From contig CAMYUM010000001.1 of assembly GCA_947301965.1 (NCBI GenBank), positions 190,731-254,730 of the forward strand: DNA of 64,000 nucleotides. Reading direction: 5' to 3'. Of this stretch, positions 25,605 through 45,301 are shown one piece after another (positions within the stretch are counted from its first letter, which is position 1; the number at the start of each line of letters is the position of its first letter). Made by a program: the position numbers and the translations under genes. This DNA is from an uncultured Azospirillum sp. GTDB taxonomy: Bacteria; Pseudomonadota; Alphaproteobacteria; RF32; CAG-239. A model generated the notes under the pieces. The model was not told the DNA's origin and did not search any database. It saw only the letters and a list, made by a program, of their open reading frames with translations.

Positions 25605-26981
25605 ATGTTCGAAAATTTGACAGATAAACTGGGCAGCGTGTTTGCCAAAATAACCTCAAGAGGTGTCTTGAATGAAAAAGACATTGATGAGGCTATGCGC
25701 GAAATTCGTGTTGCGTTATTGGAGGCAGATGTTGCTCTGCCGGTAGTCAAAGAGTTTATTGCCAAAGTTAAAGAACAGGCTCTGGGCGAGAAGGTTATTC
25801 GCTCAATTCAGCCCGGGCAGATGGTGATTAAAATTGTTCACGATGAATTGGTAAAAGTTTTGGGAGCAGATGAAAGTTCCTTAAACTTTAATGTGGTACC
25901 TCCAGCGGTTATTTTAATGACCGGTTTGCAAGGTTCCGGCAAAACAACAACCTCCGCAAAATTAGCCAAGATGTTGGGTAAAAAGCGTAAAGTTATGTTG
26001 GCATCGTTGGACGTTTATCGTCCGGCCGCTCAGGAGCAGTTGGCACAATTGGCAGATCAAATCGGCGGTTCAAGTTTGCCGATTGTGCAATGGCAGAAAC
26101 CGTTGGAAATTACAAGGCGGGCATTAGATGCAGCTAAAAAAGGCGGCTATGATGTTTTGATTTTGGACTCAGCCGGACGTTTACATATTGATAATGATTT
26201 GATGAATGAGTTGGTTGAAGTTAAAAAAATTGCAACTCCGGCGGAAATTTTGTTGGTGGCCGATGCAATGATGGGGCAAGATGCTTGCAATGTTGCAAAA
26301 GAGTTCAATGAAAAACTCGGTGTTACCGGAATCGTACTGACGCGAATCGACGGCTCATCACGTGCCGGTGCGGCTTTGTCAATGCGTATGGTGGCACAGG
26401 TGCCGGTCAAGTTTTTGGGTACCGGAGAAAAGATTGATGAATTTGAAGAATTTCATCCAGACCGCATTGCCGGACGTATTTTAGGACAAGGCGATGTAAT
26501 CAGTTTGGTCGAAAACGCAATTGAAAAAATTGATCGTGAAGAAGCTGACAAGATGGCACAACAAATGATGAAAGGTAAGTTTGATCTTGATGATTTGTTG
26601 AGCCAGTTGAGGCAAATTCAAAAACTGGGCAGTTTGGGCGGAATAATGTCGATGATCCCTGGGATGTCCAAGTTTAAAAATCAAATAGAAAATGCCGGAA
26701 TCGGTGACAATCTTATTAAAAAGCAAGAAGCAATTATTCTTTCAATGACAAAACTGGAAAGAAAATCTCCGGATGTGATTAAAGCTTCACGCAAAAAAAG
26801 AATTGCCGCCGGTGCAGGTGTGGAAGTTCATGAGGTCAATAAGCTCTTAAAACAATATGAGCAGATGGCCGGAATGATGAAAAAATTCGGCAACGGCGGC
26901 TTGAGCGGCATGATGTCGATGATGAAAAAATTTCCGATGGGCAATTTGCACGGAGGAATGGGAAACAGGTTTCCGTTTTAA
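25605..26981 (+). CDS. ffh: signal recognition particle protein Ffh
   Basis: 458 aa; N/G domains (GLQGSGKTTT) and Met-rich M domain. Confidence 0.9.
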   Translation: MFENLTDKLGSVFAKITSRGVLNEKDIDEAMREIRVALLEADVALPVVKEFIAKVKEQALGEKVIRSIQPGQMVIKIVHDELVKVLGADESSLNFNVVPPAVILMTGLQGSGKTTTSAKLAKMLGKKRKVMLASLDVYRPAAQEQLAQLADQIGGSSLPIVQWQKPLEITRRALDAAKKGGYDVLILDSAGRLHIDNDLMNELVEVKKIATPAEILLVADAMMGQDACNVAKEFNEKLGVTGIVLTRIDGSSRAGAALSMRMVAQVPVKFLGTGEKIDEFEEFHPDRIAGRILGQGDVISLVENAIEKIDREEADKMAQQMMKGKFDLDDLLSQLRQIQKLGSLGGIMSMIPGMSKFKNQIENAGIGDNLIKKQEAIILSMTKLERKSPDVIKASRKKRIAAGAGVEVHEVNKLLKQYEQMAGMMKKFGNGGLSGMMSMMKKFPMGNLHGGMGNRFPF

Positions 26982-27032
26982 GCCATTAGGGCGGAAATTG
27001 TTTTTTTAATTTAATTTAGAAAGGAATATAAA

Positions 27033-27419
27033 ATGGCAGTTCGTATCAGATTATCTCGCGGAGGTTCTAAAAAGCGTCCGTTTTATCGTATTGTGGCAGC
27101 TGATTCAAGAGCTCCTCGCGATGGTAGATTTATTGAAAAACTCGGAACATACAATCCATTGTTGCCTCAAGACCATGAGCAAAGATTGGTTGTTAATGCT
27201 GAGAGAGTTAAATATTGGCTCGGTATCGGTGCTTTGCCGACAGAAAGATTGGCAAAATTGTTCTCTAATCTTGGTTTGACTAAGGCTCCGACAATACATG
27301 AACAACCGAAAAAATCTGCTCCTAAAGCTAAAGCTGTTGAGAGAATGAAAGCTAAAGAAGAAGCTGCTAAGGCTGCTGCCGAAGCTACATCTGCGGCAAC
27401 CGAAGGAAGTGCAGAATAA
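27033..27419 (+). CDS. rpsP: 30S ribosomal protein S16 with Ala/Lys/Glu-rich C-terminal tail
   Basis: [21 protein letters not shown]…; ~45-aa low-complexity tail. Confidence 0.9.
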
Positions 27420-27434
27420 TTTAAGGATTTTTAG

Positions 27435-27980
27435 ATGCAGAATCGTTCAAAAATTTGTCTGGGTGCAGTTGTCGGTGTCCACGGTATTAAGGGTGAAGTA
27501 AAAGTAAAAAGCTTTACCGAACAAGATCGTAATATCGACAAGTATGGCGTGTTGACGGATCAAAAAGGGCGATCTCTGGAAATAAAAGTAGTCGGTCATT
27601 CGAAAGAATTATTGCGAGTTAAAATTAAGGGAGTTGATGATAGAAATCTTGCGCAGACATTTATCGGAACGCAATTGTTTGCGGAACGTGATGTGCTGCC
27701 ACCACTGACCAATAAAGAAGAGTTTTACCAGGCAGATTTGATCGGTCTAGACGTTCGCGAAGCTGCTTCGGGTAATGTGGCAGGCAAGATTGTGGGAATT
27801 TATAACTTTGGTGCGGGCGATATTCTGGAAATCAAAGTTAAACAAAGCGGAAAACTTGAAATGATTCCTTTTAATCACGCATATGTGCCGACGGTCAATA
27901 TCGAAGATGGTTATATTATTGTAAATTCTGTTTCAATGCAGTTTGAACCGGAAGATGGAGAAGAAGGTGCTGAAAGCTAA
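27435..27980 (+). CDS. rimM: ribosome maturation factor RimM
   Basis: 181 aa; RimM N-domain and PRC barrel. Confidence 0.8.
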   Translation: MQNRSKICLGAVVGVHGIKGEVKVKSFTEQDRNIDKYGVLTDQKGRSLEIKVVGHSKELLRVKIKGVDDRNLAQTFIGTQLFAERDVLPPLTNKEEFYQADLIGLDVREAASGNVAGKIVGIYNFGAGDILEIKVKQSGKLEMIPFNHAYVPTVNIEDGYIIVNSVSMQFEPEDGEEGAES

Positions 27981-28659
27981 AATCTTTACCATTTTTCCCG
28001 AAATTTTCCCAGGTTTTTTGGGCTATTCTTTAACCGGAAAAGCTCTGGATGAAGGGGTTTGGACAATTGAAACAATTAATATCAGGGACTATGCAACAGA
28101 CAAGCACGGTTCGGTTGATGATACACCTTGCGGAGGCGGGGCAGGAATGGTAATGCGCCCGGATATTTTGGGGGCGGCAATCAAAGCCAATTATTCAAAA
28201 GGAAGAATTTTGGCGATGAGCCCGAAGGGGAAACCTCTTACGCAAGAAATGGTCAAAGAACTGGCGCAGGAAGATGAAATAGCAATTGTCTGCGGCCGTT
28301 TTGAGGGGATAGATGAGAGAGTCATTGAAGCTTATGGAATAGAGGAAGTAAGCATCGGTGATTATGTCTTGACCGGCGGTGAGCAGGCAGCACAGATTTT
28401 GCTTGATGCGGTGGTGCGTTTGTTGCCCGGAGTATTGGGAAATTCCGAATCAACATTGTCAGAAAGTTTTGAGGACAATTTGTTGGAGTATCCGCAATAT
28501 ACTCGTCCGACAGAATGGGAAGGACGCAAGGTGCCTGAAGTGTTATTGGGCGGCCATCATAAAAAAATCAGTGATTGGCGTAAGGAACAAGCAATAAAAA
28601 CCACTCAAGAGAGAAGACCGGACCTATGGAAAAAATATCTTGACTCTAAAAGGGTTTAA
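27955..28659 (+). CDS. trmD: tRNA (guanine37-N1)-methyltransferase TrmD
   Basis: KIFTIFPEIF… SPOUT-class sequence. The start is ambiguous: ATG at 27943 or 27955, or GTG at 27967 behind GGAGAAGAAGG. All candidates overlap the rimM 3' end. Confidence 0.85.
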   Translation: MEKKVLKAKIFTIFPEIFPGFLGYSLTGKALDEGVWTIETINIRDYATDKHGSVDDTPCGGGAGMVMRPDILGAAIKANYSKGRILAMSPKGKPLTQEMVKELAQEDEIAIVCGRFEGIDERVIEAYGIEEVSIGDYVLTGGEQAAQILLDAVVRLLPGVLGNSESTLSESFEDNLLEYPQYTRPTEWEGRKVPEVLLGGHHKKISDWRKEQAIKTTQERRPDLWKKYLDSKRV

Positions 28660-28699
28660 GCATAGAAAGTAACAAACATTTTAAGAAAAGGTAACAGTT

Positions 28700-29086
28700 A
28701 TGAACATTTTGAAAGAAGTTGAAAAAGAGCAGATTGCAAAGCTCAGCGAAGGAAAGAACTTTCCTGAGTTTAAGGCAGGCGATACTTTGAGAGTTCACAC
28801 CAAAGTTAAAGAAGGTGACAGAGAACGTATTCAGGTTTATGAAGGCGTTTGCATTGCCCGTAAAAATGATGGTTTGAATTCTTCATTTACCGTTCGTAAA
28901 ATCTCTTTCGGTGAGGGCGTAGAGCGTGTATTTCCGCTGTATTCACCGAATATTGCCAAGATTGAGGTTTCTCGTATCGGTAAAGTTCGTCGTGCAAAAT
29001 TGTATTTCTTACGTGCTTTGCGCGGTCGTTCGGCTCGTATTGCCGACGATTTGTCTGCTTCTGCAAAGGCTAAAGACGCAGAATAG
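28700..29086 (+). CDS. rplS: 50S ribosomal protein L19
   Basis: 128 aa; canonical L19 sequence. Confidence 0.9.
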
Positions 29087-29107
29087 TTTTTAGCAAAAGC
29101 TTGTTTG

Positions 29108-29146
29108 ATAATCAGCCGCTTTATTTTTAGAGCGGCTGATTTTTTG
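29108..29146 (+). terminator. rho-independent terminator after rplS (stem ATCAGCCGC/GCGGCTGAT)
   Basis: gataatcagccgctttatttttagagcggctgattttttg. Confidence 0.6.
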
Positions 29147-29439
29147 TCTAAACGGATCAAAAAGAGAATCGTGAATTTGACTCAACGGGAGTCAGAGCAA
29201 GCGATTCCGGTTTTGTAAAAAAATAAAAAAATATGATTTTTTTGCTTGCATTATAATATTGAATATGTTACAAAGCGCACACATTAACTGGGTGGACAGG
29301 AAGAATTAGTCCATTCGGTTGTAATAAAAAATATCCCGCAAATCCTTGAATTTTATAGGTTTTTGCATAGGTTAATTGTTTAGTCGGCCAGTTCGCTAAA
29401 TGCGAATCGTGCCGTCTAGTTATAGGAAAAGTATTTAAA

Positions 29440-29751
29440 ATGATGGATACACAAAATATAAGAATTCGCCTCAAGGCTTTTGATCATCGTTTGCTCGATT
29501 TATCTACAACAGAAATCGTTCATACAGCCAAAAGAACAGGGGCAAATGTAAGAGGTCCGATACCTCTTCCGACACGAATTGAGAAGTTTACGGTTAACCG
29601 TTCTCCCCACGTAGATAAAAAATCTCGTGAGCAGTTCGAAATCAGAACCCACAAAAGACTTCTTGACATCGTTGACCCAACACCGCAAACCGTAGATGCT
29701 TTGATGAAGCTTGATTTGGCAGCCGGTGTTAATGTCGAAATTAAACTGTAA
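29440..29751 (+). CDS. rpsJ: 30S ribosomal protein S10
   Basis: [14 protein letters not shown]… canonical; ~350-bp untranslated leader upstream; no tuf upstream. Confidence 0.9.
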
Positions 29752-37521: not shown

Positions 37522-38085
37522 ATGACACAAGCTGTAGATCGTCGTAAAACAGAAAAGAAAGAAGAATTGGTTGAGAGACTGGTTCATATTAACCGTGTAG
37601 CCAAAACCGTTAAAGGCGGACGCACAATGTCTTTTGCTGCTGTCGTAGTAGTCGGAGACCAGAAAGGTCGCGTCGGTTTCGGTTCGGGTAAAGCTGCCGA
37701 AGTTCCGGAAGCTATTACCAAAGCTACAAATGAAGCTAAGAAAAATCTCGTTCGTATTCCTTTGCGCGAAGGCAGAACATTGCACCACGATGCACATGGT
37801 CGCTATGGCGCAGGTAAAGTAATTTTGAGAACAGCTCCTGCCGGTACCGGTGTTATTGCCGGTGGTCCGATGCGTGCAATTTTCGAAGTTTTGGGTGTAC
37901 AGGACGTGGTTGCAAAATCGCTGGGTTCTAACAACCCTTACAATATGATTAAGGCTACTTTTGATGCCTTGCTTTCTATCCATTCTCCGAGAATGGTTGC
38001 AGCAAAGCGTGGTAAAAAGGTCGGCGATATTGTAAGTCGTAGAGAAGGCGCAGCCGGTGTAAAATTGGAAAAAGAGGAGGCTTAA
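37522..38085 (+). CDS. rpsE: 30S ribosomal protein S5
   Basis: 187 aa. Confidence 0.92.
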
Positions 38086-38088
38086 TCA

Positions 38089-38271
38089 ATGGCAAAGAAA
38101 ACTATAAAAGTTAAGCAAATCGGTAGTCCAATCGGTCGTCCGGCAAAACAAAAAGCCATTCTTGTCGGACTTGGCTTGAACAAAATGAACAAGGTTGTTG
38201 AGTTGGAAGACACTGCGGCAATCAGAGGGATGGTTAACAAAATTCCTCATTTGGTTCAAATCGTAGATTAA
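38089..38271 (+). CDS. rpmD: 50S ribosomal protein L30
   Basis: 60 aa. Confidence 0.88.
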
Positions 38272-38275
38272 TAGT

Positions 38276-38308
38276 CAGGGCGGTGGTCTTTCGGACCACC
38301 AAGCCCGC
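38276..38308 (+). other. GC-rich intra-operon hairpin between rpmD and rplO (no T-run)
   Basis: cagggcGGTGGTCtttcgGACCACCaagcccgctg: a 7-bp perfect core stem plus imperfect outer pairing; no U-tract follows, so it is probably not a terminator. Confidence 0.3.
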
Positions 38309-38321
38309 TGAAAAATGTTAG

Positions 38322-38786
38322 GTGAAGAAAATGAAACTTAATGAATTAAAAGACAACTATGGAGCAACCAAAAACCGCATTAGAGTTGGTCGTGGTATCG
38401 GAAGCGGCAAAGGCAAGACTTCAAGCCATGGTCAAAAAGGTCAGAAGGCTCGTAGCGGCGTTGCTATCAATGGTTTTGAAGGCGGTCAGATGCCGATTTA
38501 CCGCAGACTCCCGAAACGCGGTTTTAAAAACCCGTTTGCTAAGCAGTTTGTGGTTGTAAATTTGGATACATTGCAAACCGCTATTGATGCCGGAAAATTA
38601 AAAGCAGACAAAATTGATTTGGAAGCTTTGACCAAAGCCGGTATTGTTAACAGAACTTATGACGGTGTTCGTTTGTTGGCTCGCGGTGCAGTTACGAGCG
38701 CAGTTAACGTTTCAGTAAATTCAGCTTCCAAGGCTGCTGTCGCTGCAATCGAAAAAGCCGGCGGAAAAGTAAACATTGTTGCTTAA
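38322..38786 (+). CDS. rplO: 50S ribosomal protein L15
   Basis: 154 aa; [19 protein letters not shown]. Confidence 0.92.
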
Positions 38787-38803
38787 GTTGTTTTAGCAAA
38801 CAT

Positions 38804-38838
38804 AAAAAAGGGCGGTTGAAATAACCGCCTTTTTTTTG
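38804..38838. terminator. bidirectional rho-independent terminator directly after rplO
   Basis: aaaaaagggcggttgaaataaccgccttttttttg (A-run, 8-bp GC stem, T-run). Confidence 0.6.
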
Positions 38839-38842
38839 ATTT

Positions 38843-39565
38843 TTATTCAAACAAATAGCCGTTGTATATGATTTTGGTAACATAAAATTGTCGACACATT
38901 CCGGCACCGGGGATGCCACCATATAATTGTTTGGTGTGGACATCGCCTCGTTTGGTGGCGGTTTCAATATTAAAATATGAAAATTTTCCAGTTCCTTTCC
39001 AGTCCATAAGGTATCCTTCAAATTCGGCGACATCACCTTTTTTTAAGAGGGCAATGGCACGACGTATGGCGGTTGTTGCCGGAATGACGTGATTGTTGTT
39101 AATTTCGTCATGGTTTATGATTGGATTGTCTTTGTATAAATATGTATAAACGAGGGCGCGTTCACTATGTTTGAACTTGATTTTGCGCAAGTTGTCAGGA
39201 TCAGAAGTTGCACCATGTGCAATGGATATGTCAACGGAAGCCACGGCATTATATAGTTTTGTGGCCTCCTTGCCGGCGGAATGGTACCATGTGTTAATCA
39301 AGCCATCGTTCCAATCTACCCAGATGATGCGGCCTTTTACGTGGTATTTGGTACGCAGACAATATTCAATATTATAGCCGTTGATATAAGTTTTTTGCCA
39401 AGGTTGGTTGCCCAAGTCTTCAAAAGTCTCGATAAGTTCGGCGGAAGATGAAGATACGGGTTTTCCCCACAGTTTAGAATATAACGCGAGTTTGGAAATG
39501 TGAAAAATGCCGATAACTGTAATAATGCCGGCAATTAAAATTTGTTTTTTGGTCAGCTTAATCAT
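38843..39565 (-). CDS. hypothetical membrane-anchored protein (~240 aa) inserted between rplO and secY on the opposite strand
   Basis: Clean 741-nt ORF. Its N-terminal TM helix is ILIAGIITVIGIF. The track start at 39583 is a TTG, so the ATG at ~39565 (MIKLTKKQ…) is more likely. It shares the bidirectional terminator with rplO. No family recognised. Confidence 0.5.
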   Translation of the reverse strand: MIKLTKKQILIAGIITVIGIFHISKLALYSKLWGKPVSSSSAELIETFEDLGNQPWQKTYINGYNIEYCLRTKYHVKGRIIWVDWNDGLINTWYHSAGKEATKLYNAVASVDISIAHGATSDPDNLRKIKFKHSERALVYTYLYKDNPIINHDEINNNHVIPATTAIRRAIALLKKGDVAEFEGYLMDWKGTGKFSYFNIETATKRGDVHTKQLYGGIPGAGMCRQFYVTKIIYNGYLFE

Positions 39566-39681
39566 TTTTATATCTTCAGTCAAACAAGTCGGATTGTAGC
39601 TTATACAGGTTTATTTCGGGTTAATAAAAATAGTTTTTATGCAGATGAAAGCCATAAAAATTGAGGATAAAGAAAAATTTG

Positions 39682-39709
39682 TTGCCAAAAATTTATTTTT
39701 GTGTATTAC
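39682..39709 (+). promoter_or_regulatory. candidate sigma-70 promoter for secY-adk-rpsM-rpsK-rpoA
   Basis: TTGCCA, a 16-nt spacer, then TATTAC, ~60 nt upstream of the secY ATG. This is weak, but it is needed if transcription stops at the rplO terminator. Confidence 0.25.
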
Positions 39710-39771
39710 ATTGTTTTCCAAATGGGCTGTTTATGCCCAGAATCAGGTATTTTAAAGATAAGGAAATAAAA

Positions 39772-41127
39772 ATGGTATCACTTGCAGAAAAAATGGCTGC
39801 CAACCTTGATATGTCGGCATTTAGTAAAGCCGAAGAACTAAAGAAAAGATTGTGGTTTACAATTCTTGCCCTGATTGTTTTCCGTTTGGGAACTTTTATT
39901 CCGTTGCCGGGTATTGATCCGCATATTTTAGCGGAGATTTTTGATCGAAATTCAAACGGAATTTTGGGTATGTTTAATATGTTTGCCGGCGGTGCGTTGG
40001 CTCGTATGACAATTTTTGCATTGAATATTATGCCGTATATCTCGGCATCAATTATTTTGCAATTAGGACAGTCAATTGTTCCGTCTTTGGCCGCTTTGAA
40101 AAAAGAAGGCGAGGCCGGACATCGCAAGATGGTACACTATACCAAAGTTTTGACAGTATTTATTACCATTGTCCAAGGTTATGGTATTGCCGTCGGTCTT
40201 GAAGGAATGACCGGTGGAGCCAATGTTTCTGCCGTAGTTATGCCGGGCTTTGTTTTCAGATTTACAACGGTTGTTTCTTTGGTCGGCGGTACAATGTTTA
40301 TTGTATGGTTGGGAGATCAAATTACATCGCGCGGTGTCGGCAACGGTTCATCATTGATCATTACCGTAGGTATTATTGCCAATATTCCGAGTGCTTTGGC
40401 TCAAACCTTTGAGTTGGGGCGTGTCGGGTCAATGTCAATTTGGTTGATTTTGATGCTGATGTTTATGGTTTTGGCTTTGGTATATATAATTGTGTTTGTT
40501 GAAAGAGCACAAAGAAAAATTGTTATCCAGTATCCAAAGCGTCAAATGGGTATGAAAATGACTTCTGCCGAAAGCTCGCATCTGCCTCTGAAAATTAACC
40601 CTACCGGAGTTATCCCGCCGATTTTTGCAAGCTCGCTGTTGTTATTGCCGATTACTATTGCCAACTTTTCTGCAAATAACGGACCGGCATGGGTGCAGAC
40701 TTTGAGCCGCTTGCTCGGTCACGGACAACCCTTATATTTGGCTTTGTATGCCTCATTGATTATCTTTTTTGCATTCTTCTACACCGCTGTTGTGTTCAAC
40801 CCAGAAGATACGGCGGATAATTTGAAGAAGCACGGAGGCTTTATTGCCGGAATTCGTCCGGGTAAAAATACAGCCGAGTATCTTGATTATGTTATTACCA
40901 GATTGACGGTGTTGGGTGCTTTTTATCTGACGGCATTGTGTATTTTGCCGGAAGTGCTGATTGCAAAACTGTCAGTACCATTTGTTTTGGGCGGAACGAC
41001 TCTGTTGATCGTGGTTCAAGTTACTATGGATTTTGTTACTCAAGTTCAAACACATCTTATTGCTTATCAGTACGAAGGGTTGTTGAAAAAAGCCGCCCTC
41101 GTTAACAAGAAAGGCAAAAGAAGATAA
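39772..41127 (+). CDS. secY: preprotein translocase subunit SecY
   Basis: The track start at 39661 is too far upstream. The ATG at 39772 (MVSLAEKMAANL…ELKKRLWFTILALIVFRLGTFIPLPGID) has an AAGGA RBS and a canonical SecY N-terminus. There are 10 TM segments. Confidence 0.9.
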   Translation: MVSLAEKMAANLDMSAFSKAEELKKRLWFTILALIVFRLGTFIPLPGIDPHILAEIFDRNSNGILGMFNMFAGGALARMTIFALNIMPYISASIILQLGQSIVPSLAALKKEGEAGHRKMVHYTKVLTVFITIVQGYGIAVGLEGMTGGANVSAVVMPGFVFRFTTVVSLVGGTMFIVWLGDQITSRGVGNGSSLIITVGIIANIPSALAQTFELGRVGSMSIWLILMLMFMVLALVYIIVFVERAQRKIVIQYPKRQMGMKMTSAESSHLPLKINPTGVIPPIFASSLLLLPITIANFSANNGPAWVQTLSRLLGHGQPLYLALYASLIIFFAFFYTAVVFNPEDTADNLKKHGGFIAGIRPGKNTAEYLDYVITRLTVLGAFYLTALCILPEVLIAKLSVPFVLGGTTLLIVVQVTMDFVTQVQTHLIAYQYEGLLKKAALVNKKGKRR

Positions 41128-42778: not shown

Positions 42779-43789
42779 GTGATTCAAAAGAATTGGCAAG
42801 AACTTATTAAACCGACTAATTTAGAAGTTGTTCCCAGCGATGGCGGAAACAAAGCTAAAATAGTGGTAGAACCATTAGAGAGAGGCTTTGGTCTCACTCT
42901 TGGTAACGCATTGAGACGGGTTTTGTTGTCTTCTTTGCAAGGCGGAGCTGTTACCGCCATTAAAATTGACGGCGTTTTGCATGAATTTTCAGTTATTCCG
43001 GGTGTCCGCGAAGATGTTACGGATATTGTACTGAACATTAAATGCTTGGCTGTTGCTGTTCATAGTGAAGGCACAAAATCTATGACTTTGAAAGCCGAAG
43101 GTCCTTGTGTGGTTACCGCAGCAATGATTGAAACCGGTCACGATGTTGAAATTATGAATCCGGATTTGGTTATTTGTAACCTTGATGCCGGTGCTAAAAT
43201 CAATATGGAATTGACTGTCGGAACCGGTAAGGGCTATGTTCCGGCCAGCCAAAATAAACCGGCCGATGCTCCTATCGGATTGATTCCGGTTGATGCGATT
43301 TATTCTCCGATTAAACGCGTTTCATACCGTGTCGACAATACTCGTGTCGGACAAGTTACCGACTATGATAAGCTGACTTTGGTTGTTGAAACCAACGGTG
43401 TGGTTACTCCGGAAGATGCAGTAGCATTTGCTGCCCGTATCTTGCAAGATCAGTTGAAACCGTTTATCAATTTTGATGAGCCGGAAAACGAAGTTGAAGC
43501 AGAAAAAGAAGAATTGCCGTTCAACAAGAATTTGTTGAAGAAGGTTGAAGAACTCGAACTTTCTGTTCGTTCGGCTAACTGCCTGAAGAATGATAATATC
43601 GTTTATATCGGTGATTTGGTTCAAAAGACTGAGGCAGAAATGCTCCGTACACCGAACTTTGGTCGTAAATCTTTGAACGAAATCAAAGAGGTGCTGGCTA
43701 AAATGGGTATTCATCTCGGTATGGAAACACCAGGTTGGCCGCCGGAGAATATTGAGGAGTTGATTAAGAGGGTTGACGACCATTTCTAG
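42779..43789 (+). CDS. rpoA: DNA-directed RNA polymerase subunit alpha
   Basis: 336 aa; NTD and CTD canonical. Confidence 0.92.
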
Positions 43790-44674: not shown

Positions 44675-45301
44675 ATGAGACATGGTGATGCACATAAAAA
44701 ATTTAATATGCCGACCAGCCAGAGAAGAGCTTTGTTTTCTAATCTTACCTGCGCTTTGTTGACACACGAACAAATTAAAGTTACTTTGCCGCGCGCTAAA
44801 GAGTTGAGAACATTTGCCGATAACATGATTACTTTTGGTAAAAAAGGCGATTTGAACAGCCGTCGTTTGGCATTGGCCTTTTTGCGTGATGAAGAAGTTG
44901 TTGCAAAGTTGTTTTCGACTTTGGCAGAGCGTTACAAAAACCGCAATGGCGGTTATACCCGCGTTTTGAAAGCCGGCATTCGTTACGGCGATGCTGCTCC
45001 GATGGCGATTGTTGAGTTGGTTGACAGAGATGTTAAGGCCAAGGGTGCTAAAGATTTGGCTCGCGTAGCTGCTGAAAAGGCTGCTGCTGAAGCTGAGGAA
45101 AAAGCAGCCGAAGCAGAGGCTAAAAAAGCCGAGAAAAAGGCTGAAAAGAAAACCGAAAAGAAAGCAGAAAAGTCGGTAGAGAAAAAAGCTGAAAAGAAGG
45201 CAGTAGAAAAGAAAACCGAAAAGAAAGCCGAGAAGCCTGCAGAAAAGAAAGCTAAAGCTCCGGTAAAAGCTAAAAAAACTACCAAAACAGCTGAAAAATA
45301 A
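44675..45301 (+). CDS. rplQ: 50S ribosomal protein L17 with ~90-aa Lys/Ala/Glu-rich C-terminal extension
   Basis: N-terminal 118 aa canonical L17; then (A/T)EKK-type imperfect repeats encoded by tandem gctgaaaagaaa-like units (nt ~45030-45301). Confidence 0.88.

Follow-up and report, generated by a model that had tools for sequence, protein, structure and literature searches.

The S10-spc-alpha cluster of ribosomal protein genes is a textbook case of gene order resisting rearrangement. The question raised here is why, in a stretch of 64,000 nucleotides (nt) from an uncultured Azospirillum sp. (contig CAMYUM010000001.1 of assembly GCA_947301965.1, positions 190,731 to 254,730; hereafter the window), the spc gene rplO, encoding ribosomal protein L15, is separated from secY by a terminator-like hairpin and a gene of 240 amino acids (aa) on the opposite strand. 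The answer we favor, at a probability of roughly 70%, is that the break is inherited: the spc operon would have come apart at the rplO-secY junction in the common ancestor of a clade of uncultured Alphaproteobacteria from gut and rumen, one that includes the metagenome-assembled genome (MAG) "Azospirillum sp. 47_25". This split would have provided secY with its own promoter and left a slot of variable content, which in the window is occupied by a relocated gene.

In the open reading frame (ORF) list of the window, rplO is found at 38322-38786 on the plus strand as the last gene of the upstream ribosomal protein string, with 74-99% identity to relatives; its orthologs in two related metagenomic loci, L006 and L104, carry PF00828 (such loci are designated by L and a number). 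The hairpin follows at 38804-38838, detected by terminator scan and RNA folding as a bidirectional, intrinsic-terminator-like structure. Next comes the 240-aa gene at 38843-39565 on the minus strand, predicted to encode a membrane-anchored envelope protein. It is convergent with rplO, their stop codons lying 56 nt apart, and divergent from secY, with which it has a 207-bp control region in common. secY is located at 39772-41127 on the plus strand, where AAGGA precedes its ATG (ATGGTATCA...), and its product has 87-98% identity to proteins with PF00344 encoded by related MAGs. The resulting gap of 985 nt, holding an opposite-strand gene, sets the window apart from the canonical contiguous spc operon, in which the rplO-secY spacer is short and no gene lies between. 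The usual gene order and orientation are kept on both sides, namely rpsH-rplF-rplR-rpsE-rpmD-rplO upstream and a unit led by secY, followed by adk, rpsM, rpsK and rpoA, downstream (ORF list, with Pfam matches on the L006 and L104 orthologs). An initial annotation, made from the nucleotide sequence of the window, had described this order with the rplO end at 38786, the terminator at 38804-38838 and the minus-strand 240-aa ORF before secY, all at or within one base. Its coordinates stand as given except for the secY start codon, which is at 39772 and not at about 39771 or 39773. Its central observation, a terminator and an opposite-strand gene severing the link between rplO and secY, is borne out.

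How unusual such a gap is, and how far it extends among relatives, can be judged from metagenomic contigs. A scan for rplO relatives returned 80 loci, 71 of which had enough downstream sequence, and secY began less than 400 nt past rplO in 66 of these 71, in agreement with the near-universal contiguity that the initial annotation had assumed. The five exceptions were the four loci closest to the window (L024, L025/L026 and L027) and the unrelated L045. Using SecY homologs, further contigs were fetched, giving an opportunistic sample of seven lineages of the clade. In every sampled relative with a SecY protein 87-98% identical to that of the window, rplO and secY were 0.97-3.8 kb apart, which contradicts the proposal that the rearrangement is peculiar to the window genome. 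The loci carrying orthologs of the 240-aa gene at 73-80% protein identity (L006/L007, L008 and L024), found in independent assemblies, display exactly the arrangement of the window, that is, rplO, terminator, opposite-strand gene and secY. The layout is shared at about genus level, an outcome that the initial annotation had named as speaking against its interpretation, but the gene itself is an unannotated hypothetical one. An assembly artefact is contradicted by the independent assemblies, which come from different studies.

The remaining lineages fill the same junction differently. In the "Azospirillum sp. 47_25" type (L104-L106; SecY 87% identical), the gap is 968 nt and contains one ORF of 83 aa. 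The gap of L107 (SecY 91%) is 3.8 kb, with ORFs of 448, 198 and 295 aa, and that of L108 (SecY 91%) is 2.2 kb, with ORFs of 197 and 288 aa. In L109/L110 (SecY 95%), a gap of 1.0 kb contains an opposite-strand gene with an HTH_3 domain, and in L026 (rplO 90%), a gap of 3.1 kb contains other ORFs. Since the split is present in lineages without the 240-aa gene, it is older than the arrival of that gene. The initial annotation had taken the gene to be what interrupts the operon, yet these lineages are split as well and possess both the terminator and the conserved block upstream of secY.

Between the terminator and the secY block, the DNA is non-homologous from lineage to lineage. For example, L107 and L108 do not differ in their SecY protein, but the gaps of these two contigs (L107 1208-5001, 3.8 kb; L108 2779-5001, 2.2 kb) are mostly unalignable, indicating that the contents of the slot turn over between close relatives. 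Except for the one HTH_3 domain, no recognizable domains were found in the cargo genes of the other lineages. A PADLOC search of this cargo returned generic matches to the helix-turn-helix region of the L109 gene and one faint match (E value 7e-4) to the 83-aa ORF of L104.

These comparisons bear on the idea that a mobile element or horizontal transfer recently broke an intact spc operon in the window genome alone. Such an event would fit the rule of rplO-secY contiguity elsewhere (66 of 71 loci) and the presence of a weak direct repeat of 23 nt, 78% identical, that flanks the ORF at 38832-38854 and 39565-39587. However, this repeat extends into coding sequence, chance often produces repeats of its size, and it is the only mark found among those expected of a mobile element or genomic island (integrase, transposase, repeats, tRNA and composition). 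The cargo genes have no integrase or transposase domains, no tRNA is present, and the GC content (0.407) and third-position GC content (0.427) of the 240-aa gene are like those of its neighbors and match the host. Moreover, the same arrangement is seen in relatives whose version of the protein is just 73-80% identical, and the split, the terminator and the putative secY promoter also occur where the 240-aa gene is absent. A recent private insertion is therefore highly improbable.

The first of the two elements that recur at the split is the terminator. In the window, the hairpin AAAAAAGGGCGGTTGAAATAACCGCCTTTTTTTT begins 17 bases past the rplO stop codon and consists of an A-tract, a GC stem and a T-tract, so that a GC-rich stem-loop with a T-run is present on each strand, as in bidirectional intrinsic terminators. 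The terminator scan called it on both strands, with a stem of 15 pairs on the plus strand and a GC core of 7 pairs on the minus strand. RNA folding gave -18.9 kcal/mol on the plus strand and -16.2 kcal/mol on the minus strand (z = -3.4 and -4.3, respectively, against shuffled sequences). The stop codon of the 240-aa ORF lies four bases beyond the hairpin. A search of Rfam over 38000-40200 gave just terminator-like matches far below threshold.

Hairpins with the same build, an A-tract, a GC hairpin and a T-tract, are found 15-25 nt past the rplO stop codon in each lineage, that is, at the same position in the six other lineages represented by L006, L026, L104, L107, L108 and L109. Their stems are unrelated in sequence, with examples including GGGCGGTT/AACCGCC, CTCCCGGC/GTCGGGAG, GCCTCCC/GGGAGG and CCCCGGA/TCCGGGG, and the fold energies across lineages range from -19 to -39 kcal/mol. 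The persistence of a terminator whose stem sequence differs between lineages is a good indication that ending transcription past rplO is of importance. In general, bidirectional intrinsic terminators are known between convergent genes of bacteria, and the hairpin of the window resembles them in its GC stem placed between an A-tract and a T-tract. The hairpin in itself is not unusual; it stands out from ordinary bidirectional terminators by a position that is conserved across lineages and a sequence that is not.

The second recurring element is a promoter and leader block upstream of secY (39653-39771, plus strand), common to all lineages at 76-92% identity. Approximately 120 nt long and ending directly before the secY start codon, it reads ATAAAAATTGAGGATAAAGAGAAAtTTGTTGCaAAaAATT-AtTTTTGTGTATTAc/gATTG...; no other part of the gap aligns across all lineages. 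Its components are an A-rich upstream element (ATAAAAATTGAGGATAAAGA), a putative -35 hexamer TTGCCA (39682-39687), a putative -10 hexamer TATTAC (39704-39709), a GGGC/GCCC hairpin (39724-39738) and a Shine-Dalgarno sequence AAGGA (39760-39764). The hexamers are separated by 16 nt and match the consensus at five of six positions for TTGCCA and at four of six for TATTAC, which has no final T. Across lineages, the candidate promoter takes the form TTGCCA/TTGCAA-N16-TATTAC/G, with hardly any variation in the hexamers and the preceding 50 nt. The candidate promoter TTGCCA-N16-TATTAC at 39682-39709, proposed in the initial annotation, is thus present and lies within this block. A generic scan for the sigma-70 consensus did not call it because TATTAC is without the final T, and its assignment as the secY promoter is accordingly one that we infer from conservation and position and not from a consensus score. 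For the GGGC/GCCC leader hairpin, the sequence is conserved and no covariation was found, so no structural claim is made. When a shared regulatory motif was sought, the A-rich element upstream of the -35 hexamer did not recur elsewhere in the window beyond chance.

The imperfect -10 hexamer and the failure of the scan to call the promoter leave room for a different view, in which the locus still functions as one operon, the hairpin attenuates transcription and read-through accounts for most secY expression. On this view, the conserved block serves translation or mRNA processing, and its inclusion of the 5' leader and the Shine-Dalgarno sequence makes conservation for translation alone conceivable. 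Yet conservation reaching about 50 nt upstream of the -35 hexamer is unexpected for a purely translational signal and fits a promoter with an upstream element better. In addition, a read-through transcript would need to traverse 0.97-3.8 kb of unrelated and often opposite-strand DNA, as well as the strong hairpins with A/T flanks (-19 to -39 kcal/mol) that every lineage has kept. We consider this view unlikely and regard a secY unit with its own promoter as the better reading of the locus.

The occupant of the slot in the window is a real and conserved gene. Among 5.8 billion proteins searched, 18 full-length homologs with 51-98% identity were found, all from MAGs of Alphaproteobacteria and all unnamed or annotated as "hypothetical protein". 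Compared with the L008 and L024 orthologs, the gene shows 0.16-0.17 nonsynonymous differences (pN) and 0.67-0.73 synonymous differences (pS) per site, corresponding to a ratio of nonsynonymous to synonymous rates (dN/dS) of about 0.07-0.12. A profile search of 1.84 billion cluster representatives identified 575 relatives at an E value of 1e-3 or below, 30 of them at 1e-30 or below, mostly 200-260 aa long and spread over several phyla. In a second, word-indexed search, relatives were found in Clostridia, Limnobacter, Dyella and others, none of them with a Pfam domain and every one hypothetical. For most homologs, the alignment starts at the ATG that gives a product of 240 aa; an upstream TTG at 39583 would give 246 aa and is the less likely start.

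As the initial annotation had noted, the ORF is not recognized by any known family. Neither the protein itself nor 103 family members gave a match in Pfam, NCBIfam, PADLOC or the sequences of the PDB, apart from PF01336, a family with the oligonucleotide/oligosaccharide-binding (OB) fold, which appeared in 4 of the 103 members at a best E value of 0.074. The absence of an annotated family and the weak Shine-Dalgarno sequence (GAAGA) before the ATG could suggest that the ORF is spurious and the gap simply a long spacer, an eventuality that the initial annotation had allowed for. Against this stand the full-length homologs in many MAGs and in other phyla, strong purifying selection, invariant motifs and a confident AlphaFold2 model, so that a spurious ORF is a negligible prospect.

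A second conserved block may belong to the promoter of the 240-aa gene. Located at 39596-39618 and reading TATAAGCTACAAT on the minus strand, it is kept in three gene-bearing lineages, the window, L006 and L008, where the flanking spacer has diverged, and is a candidate -10 region of this gene.

The position of the gene varies among relatives. At the rplO-secY junction, it is found only in the nearest relatives of the window, those with a protein identity of 73% or more. Homologs with 54-62% identity (L001-L005, L011-L013, L017 and L018) are located directly upstream of ruvA-ruvB-ybgC on the same strand, usually with a divergent gene of 262 aa for an outer-membrane-like protein as a neighbor, and those of L009/L010/L019, L014-L016 and L020-L023 are in other genomic places. 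The location beside ruvAB is the most widespread and hence probably the older one. If so, the gene would have moved from the ruvAB side into the rplO-secY gap in an ancestor of the near relatives of the window.

It could also be speculated that the 240-aa protein works with SecY or the ribosome and that its position has been selected for co-regulation through the divergent promoter region. The protein is predicted to be anchored in the membrane, and its gene and secY have the 207-bp control region in common, which would fit such a role. However, homologs in related genomes are found beside ruvAB or in unrelated contexts, and sister lineages fill the slot with unrelated genes, making a functional link to SecY or the ribosome very unlikely.

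In at least 10 loci, even without an adjacent ruvAB, the homologs have as divergent neighbor a gene for a protein of ~262 aa with a signal peptide and the C-terminus ...VLF (e.g., L001 5061-5849, L004 5009-5791, L005 4401-5189 and L014 4422-5207). This protein has no match in Pfam and is absent from the 64-kb window. It looks like an outer-membrane beta-barrel and is possibly a functional partner of the 240-aa family. No common feature links the neighborhoods of distant family members in Limnobacter, Dyella and a Firmicute. In the Firmicute contig (L113, 3630-5645), the family member begins at the very next base after the stop codon of a histidine kinase with HAMP and HisKA domains, downstream of an OmpR-type regulator, so that in this lineage it may be transcribed together with a two-component system.

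The 240-aa protein contains a single hydrophobic 19-mer at residues 9-27 (mean Kyte-Doolittle value 2.12), preceded by K4, K7 and K8, in accordance with the N-terminal transmembrane anchor described in the initial annotation. In distant family members, N-termini of the lipoprotein type, such as LFLAGC, are found instead. Together, the hydrophobic N-terminus and these lipoprotein-type signals point to a protein with its bulk outside the cytoplasm. Across the 103 diverse members, D112, G118, N157, H159, G184 and C224 are invariant, and R136, D208, G220 and G222 are nearly so. C224, the single invariant cysteine of the family, falls within GAGMCRQF, a segment that the initial annotation had pointed out near the C-terminus. 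No other motif is as well conserved throughout the family, and given the conservation of G220, G222 and C224, this one can be regarded as its signature.

An AlphaFold2 model built on the 103 sequences has a mean predicted local distance difference test score (pLDDT) of 88.3 and a predicted template modeling score (pTM) of 0.86 and predicts an OB-like beta-barrel. In this respect, the protein may resemble CcmE, CusF and BOF, membrane-tethered OB-fold proteins with one N-terminal anchor or lipoprotein signal, a small beta-barrel and a few conserved ligand-binding residues. The likeness is a tentative one, suggested in part by weak structural matches; sequence comparison did not place the protein among them. 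There is no sequence similarity to these proteins, and the family has its own invariant pattern D...R...N-x-H...G-x-G-x-C. Nor was there a sequence match to the curated OB family model for OB-fold proteins such as single-stranded DNA-binding protein, the anticodon-binding domain of aminoacyl-tRNA synthetases or BOF. Neither sequence nor fold matched a known Cys-His catalytic family, such as sortases or other known Cys-His envelope enzymes, and PADLOC returned no match to known anti-phage defense proteins. With low confidence, the product could be an envelope protein whose barrel has a metal or small ligand as its binding partner, or one in which the Cys/His pair is catalytic.

Taken as a whole, the evidence for a clade-wide split suggests the following organization. 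The ribosomal protein transcript would end at the intrinsic terminator 15-25 nt past rplO, and secY-adk, probably also rpsM-rpsK-rpoA, would be driven from their own promoter in the ~120-nt block that precedes secY. The uncoupling of these genes from the upstream ribosomal genes, as proposed in the initial annotation, is thereby a prediction from sequence. What lies from terminator to promoter would constitute a permissive slot whose contents are exchanged between lineages. By framing a region in which DNA can be gained or lost without disturbing the essential flanking genes, the two elements would explain the rapid turnover of the slot contents. In the lineage of the window, the slot appears to be occupied by a chromosomal gene relocated from the ruvAB side, which would be transcribed towards rplO and use the same hairpin from the other direction. 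Its product would be tethered by one N-terminal helix and expose an OB-like barrel with invariant Asp, Asn, His and Cys residues outside the cytoplasm.

Some points weigh against this organization. A single origin of the split is parsimonious, not demonstrated, given seven opportunistically sampled lineages, and the comparison covers the rplO/secY locus of MAGs other than those keeping the gene beside ruvAB. The -10 sequence TATTAC/TATTAG without the usual final T, missed by the consensus scan, belongs here too. Terminator and promoter are both predicted from the sequence, and some read-through from rplO into secY may occur. A broader version would see the junction as a hotspot of gene turnover within the most conserved gene cluster of bacteria, insulated by terminator and promoter. 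Its occupant would be the first member of a new and widespread enzyme family of the envelope, tethered to the membrane and combining an OB fold with an active site of Asp, His and Cys. This version is tentative, and we consider it rather doubtful.

Insertions into this part of the genome have been described before. A study of the operon cluster in Gammaproteobacteria and Bacilli reported occasional insertions, mostly between operons (rpoBC|str and str|S10), and Bacillus selenitireducens was the only species found there with secY outside the spc operon (PMC8046335). As in those cases, a few unrelated genes have lodged in a conserved cluster, and the order has been inherited by a clade whose descendants modify it further. 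In contrast to them, the break in the clade of the window lies inside the spc unit, at rplO|secY, and concerns Alphaproteobacteria. Furthermore, secY has kept its place and strand and is preceded by its own conserved block with a candidate promoter, and the inserted content differs even between close relatives (3.8 kb in L107 versus 2.2 kb in L108). The window thus presents the same kind of event as the known cluster insertions at an unusual place. Neither the split nor its occupant overturns current understanding. Rather, a cut inside the spc unit shows how the constraint on gene order can relax, with a terminator on one side, a putative secY promoter on the other and cargo exchanged between them. 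The organization predicts that SecY and adenylate kinase are regulated apart from the upstream ribosomal proteins in these abundant uncultured gut bacteria, and the rplO-secY slot could serve to mark lineages within the clade. The unnamed 240-aa family, with its 575 representatives, no Pfam model and an invariant His/Cys signature, is a reasonable target for structural and functional characterization.

The cluster is altered at other places of the window as well. A gene for a D-Tyr-tRNA deacylase (PF02580; 44033-44470, minus strand) is located between rpoA (42779-43789) and rplQ (44675-45301), and with this opposite-strand gene the alpha operon is interrupted, too. The arrangement rpoA-PF02580-rplQ is also found in L006 and L109/L110 and not in L104; in L107 and L108, a methyltransferase gene and others come after rpoA, and the stretch fetched contains no rplQ. 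At the other end (25605-29751), ffh-rpsP-rimM-trmD-rplS, and not the str operon (rpsL-rpsG-fusA-tuf), precedes the S10 operon (rpsJ at 29440), so the larger superoperon is rearranged at that end as well.

Further observations concern single loci. In L045 (3771-5946), the unrelated lineage with an rplO product 59% identical, ~2.2 kb lie between rplO and secY, and this is an independent example of an opened rplO-secY junction. On the public human-gut contig L025 (3983-4477), the ORF at the contig end begins with MCIRDR, which we take to be the translation of Nextera adaptor sequence; this contig end is probably adaptor-contaminated or chimeric. Finally, upstream of the split, the rpmD-rplO spacer contains a stem-loop without a T-run (38276-38310, plus strand; core stem 38282-38300) that matches no Rfam family. 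In the RNAalifold consensus of seven lineages, nine of its nine pairs are preserved by compensatory changes on both sides, and it could act as a processing, stability or protein-binding element within the operon.

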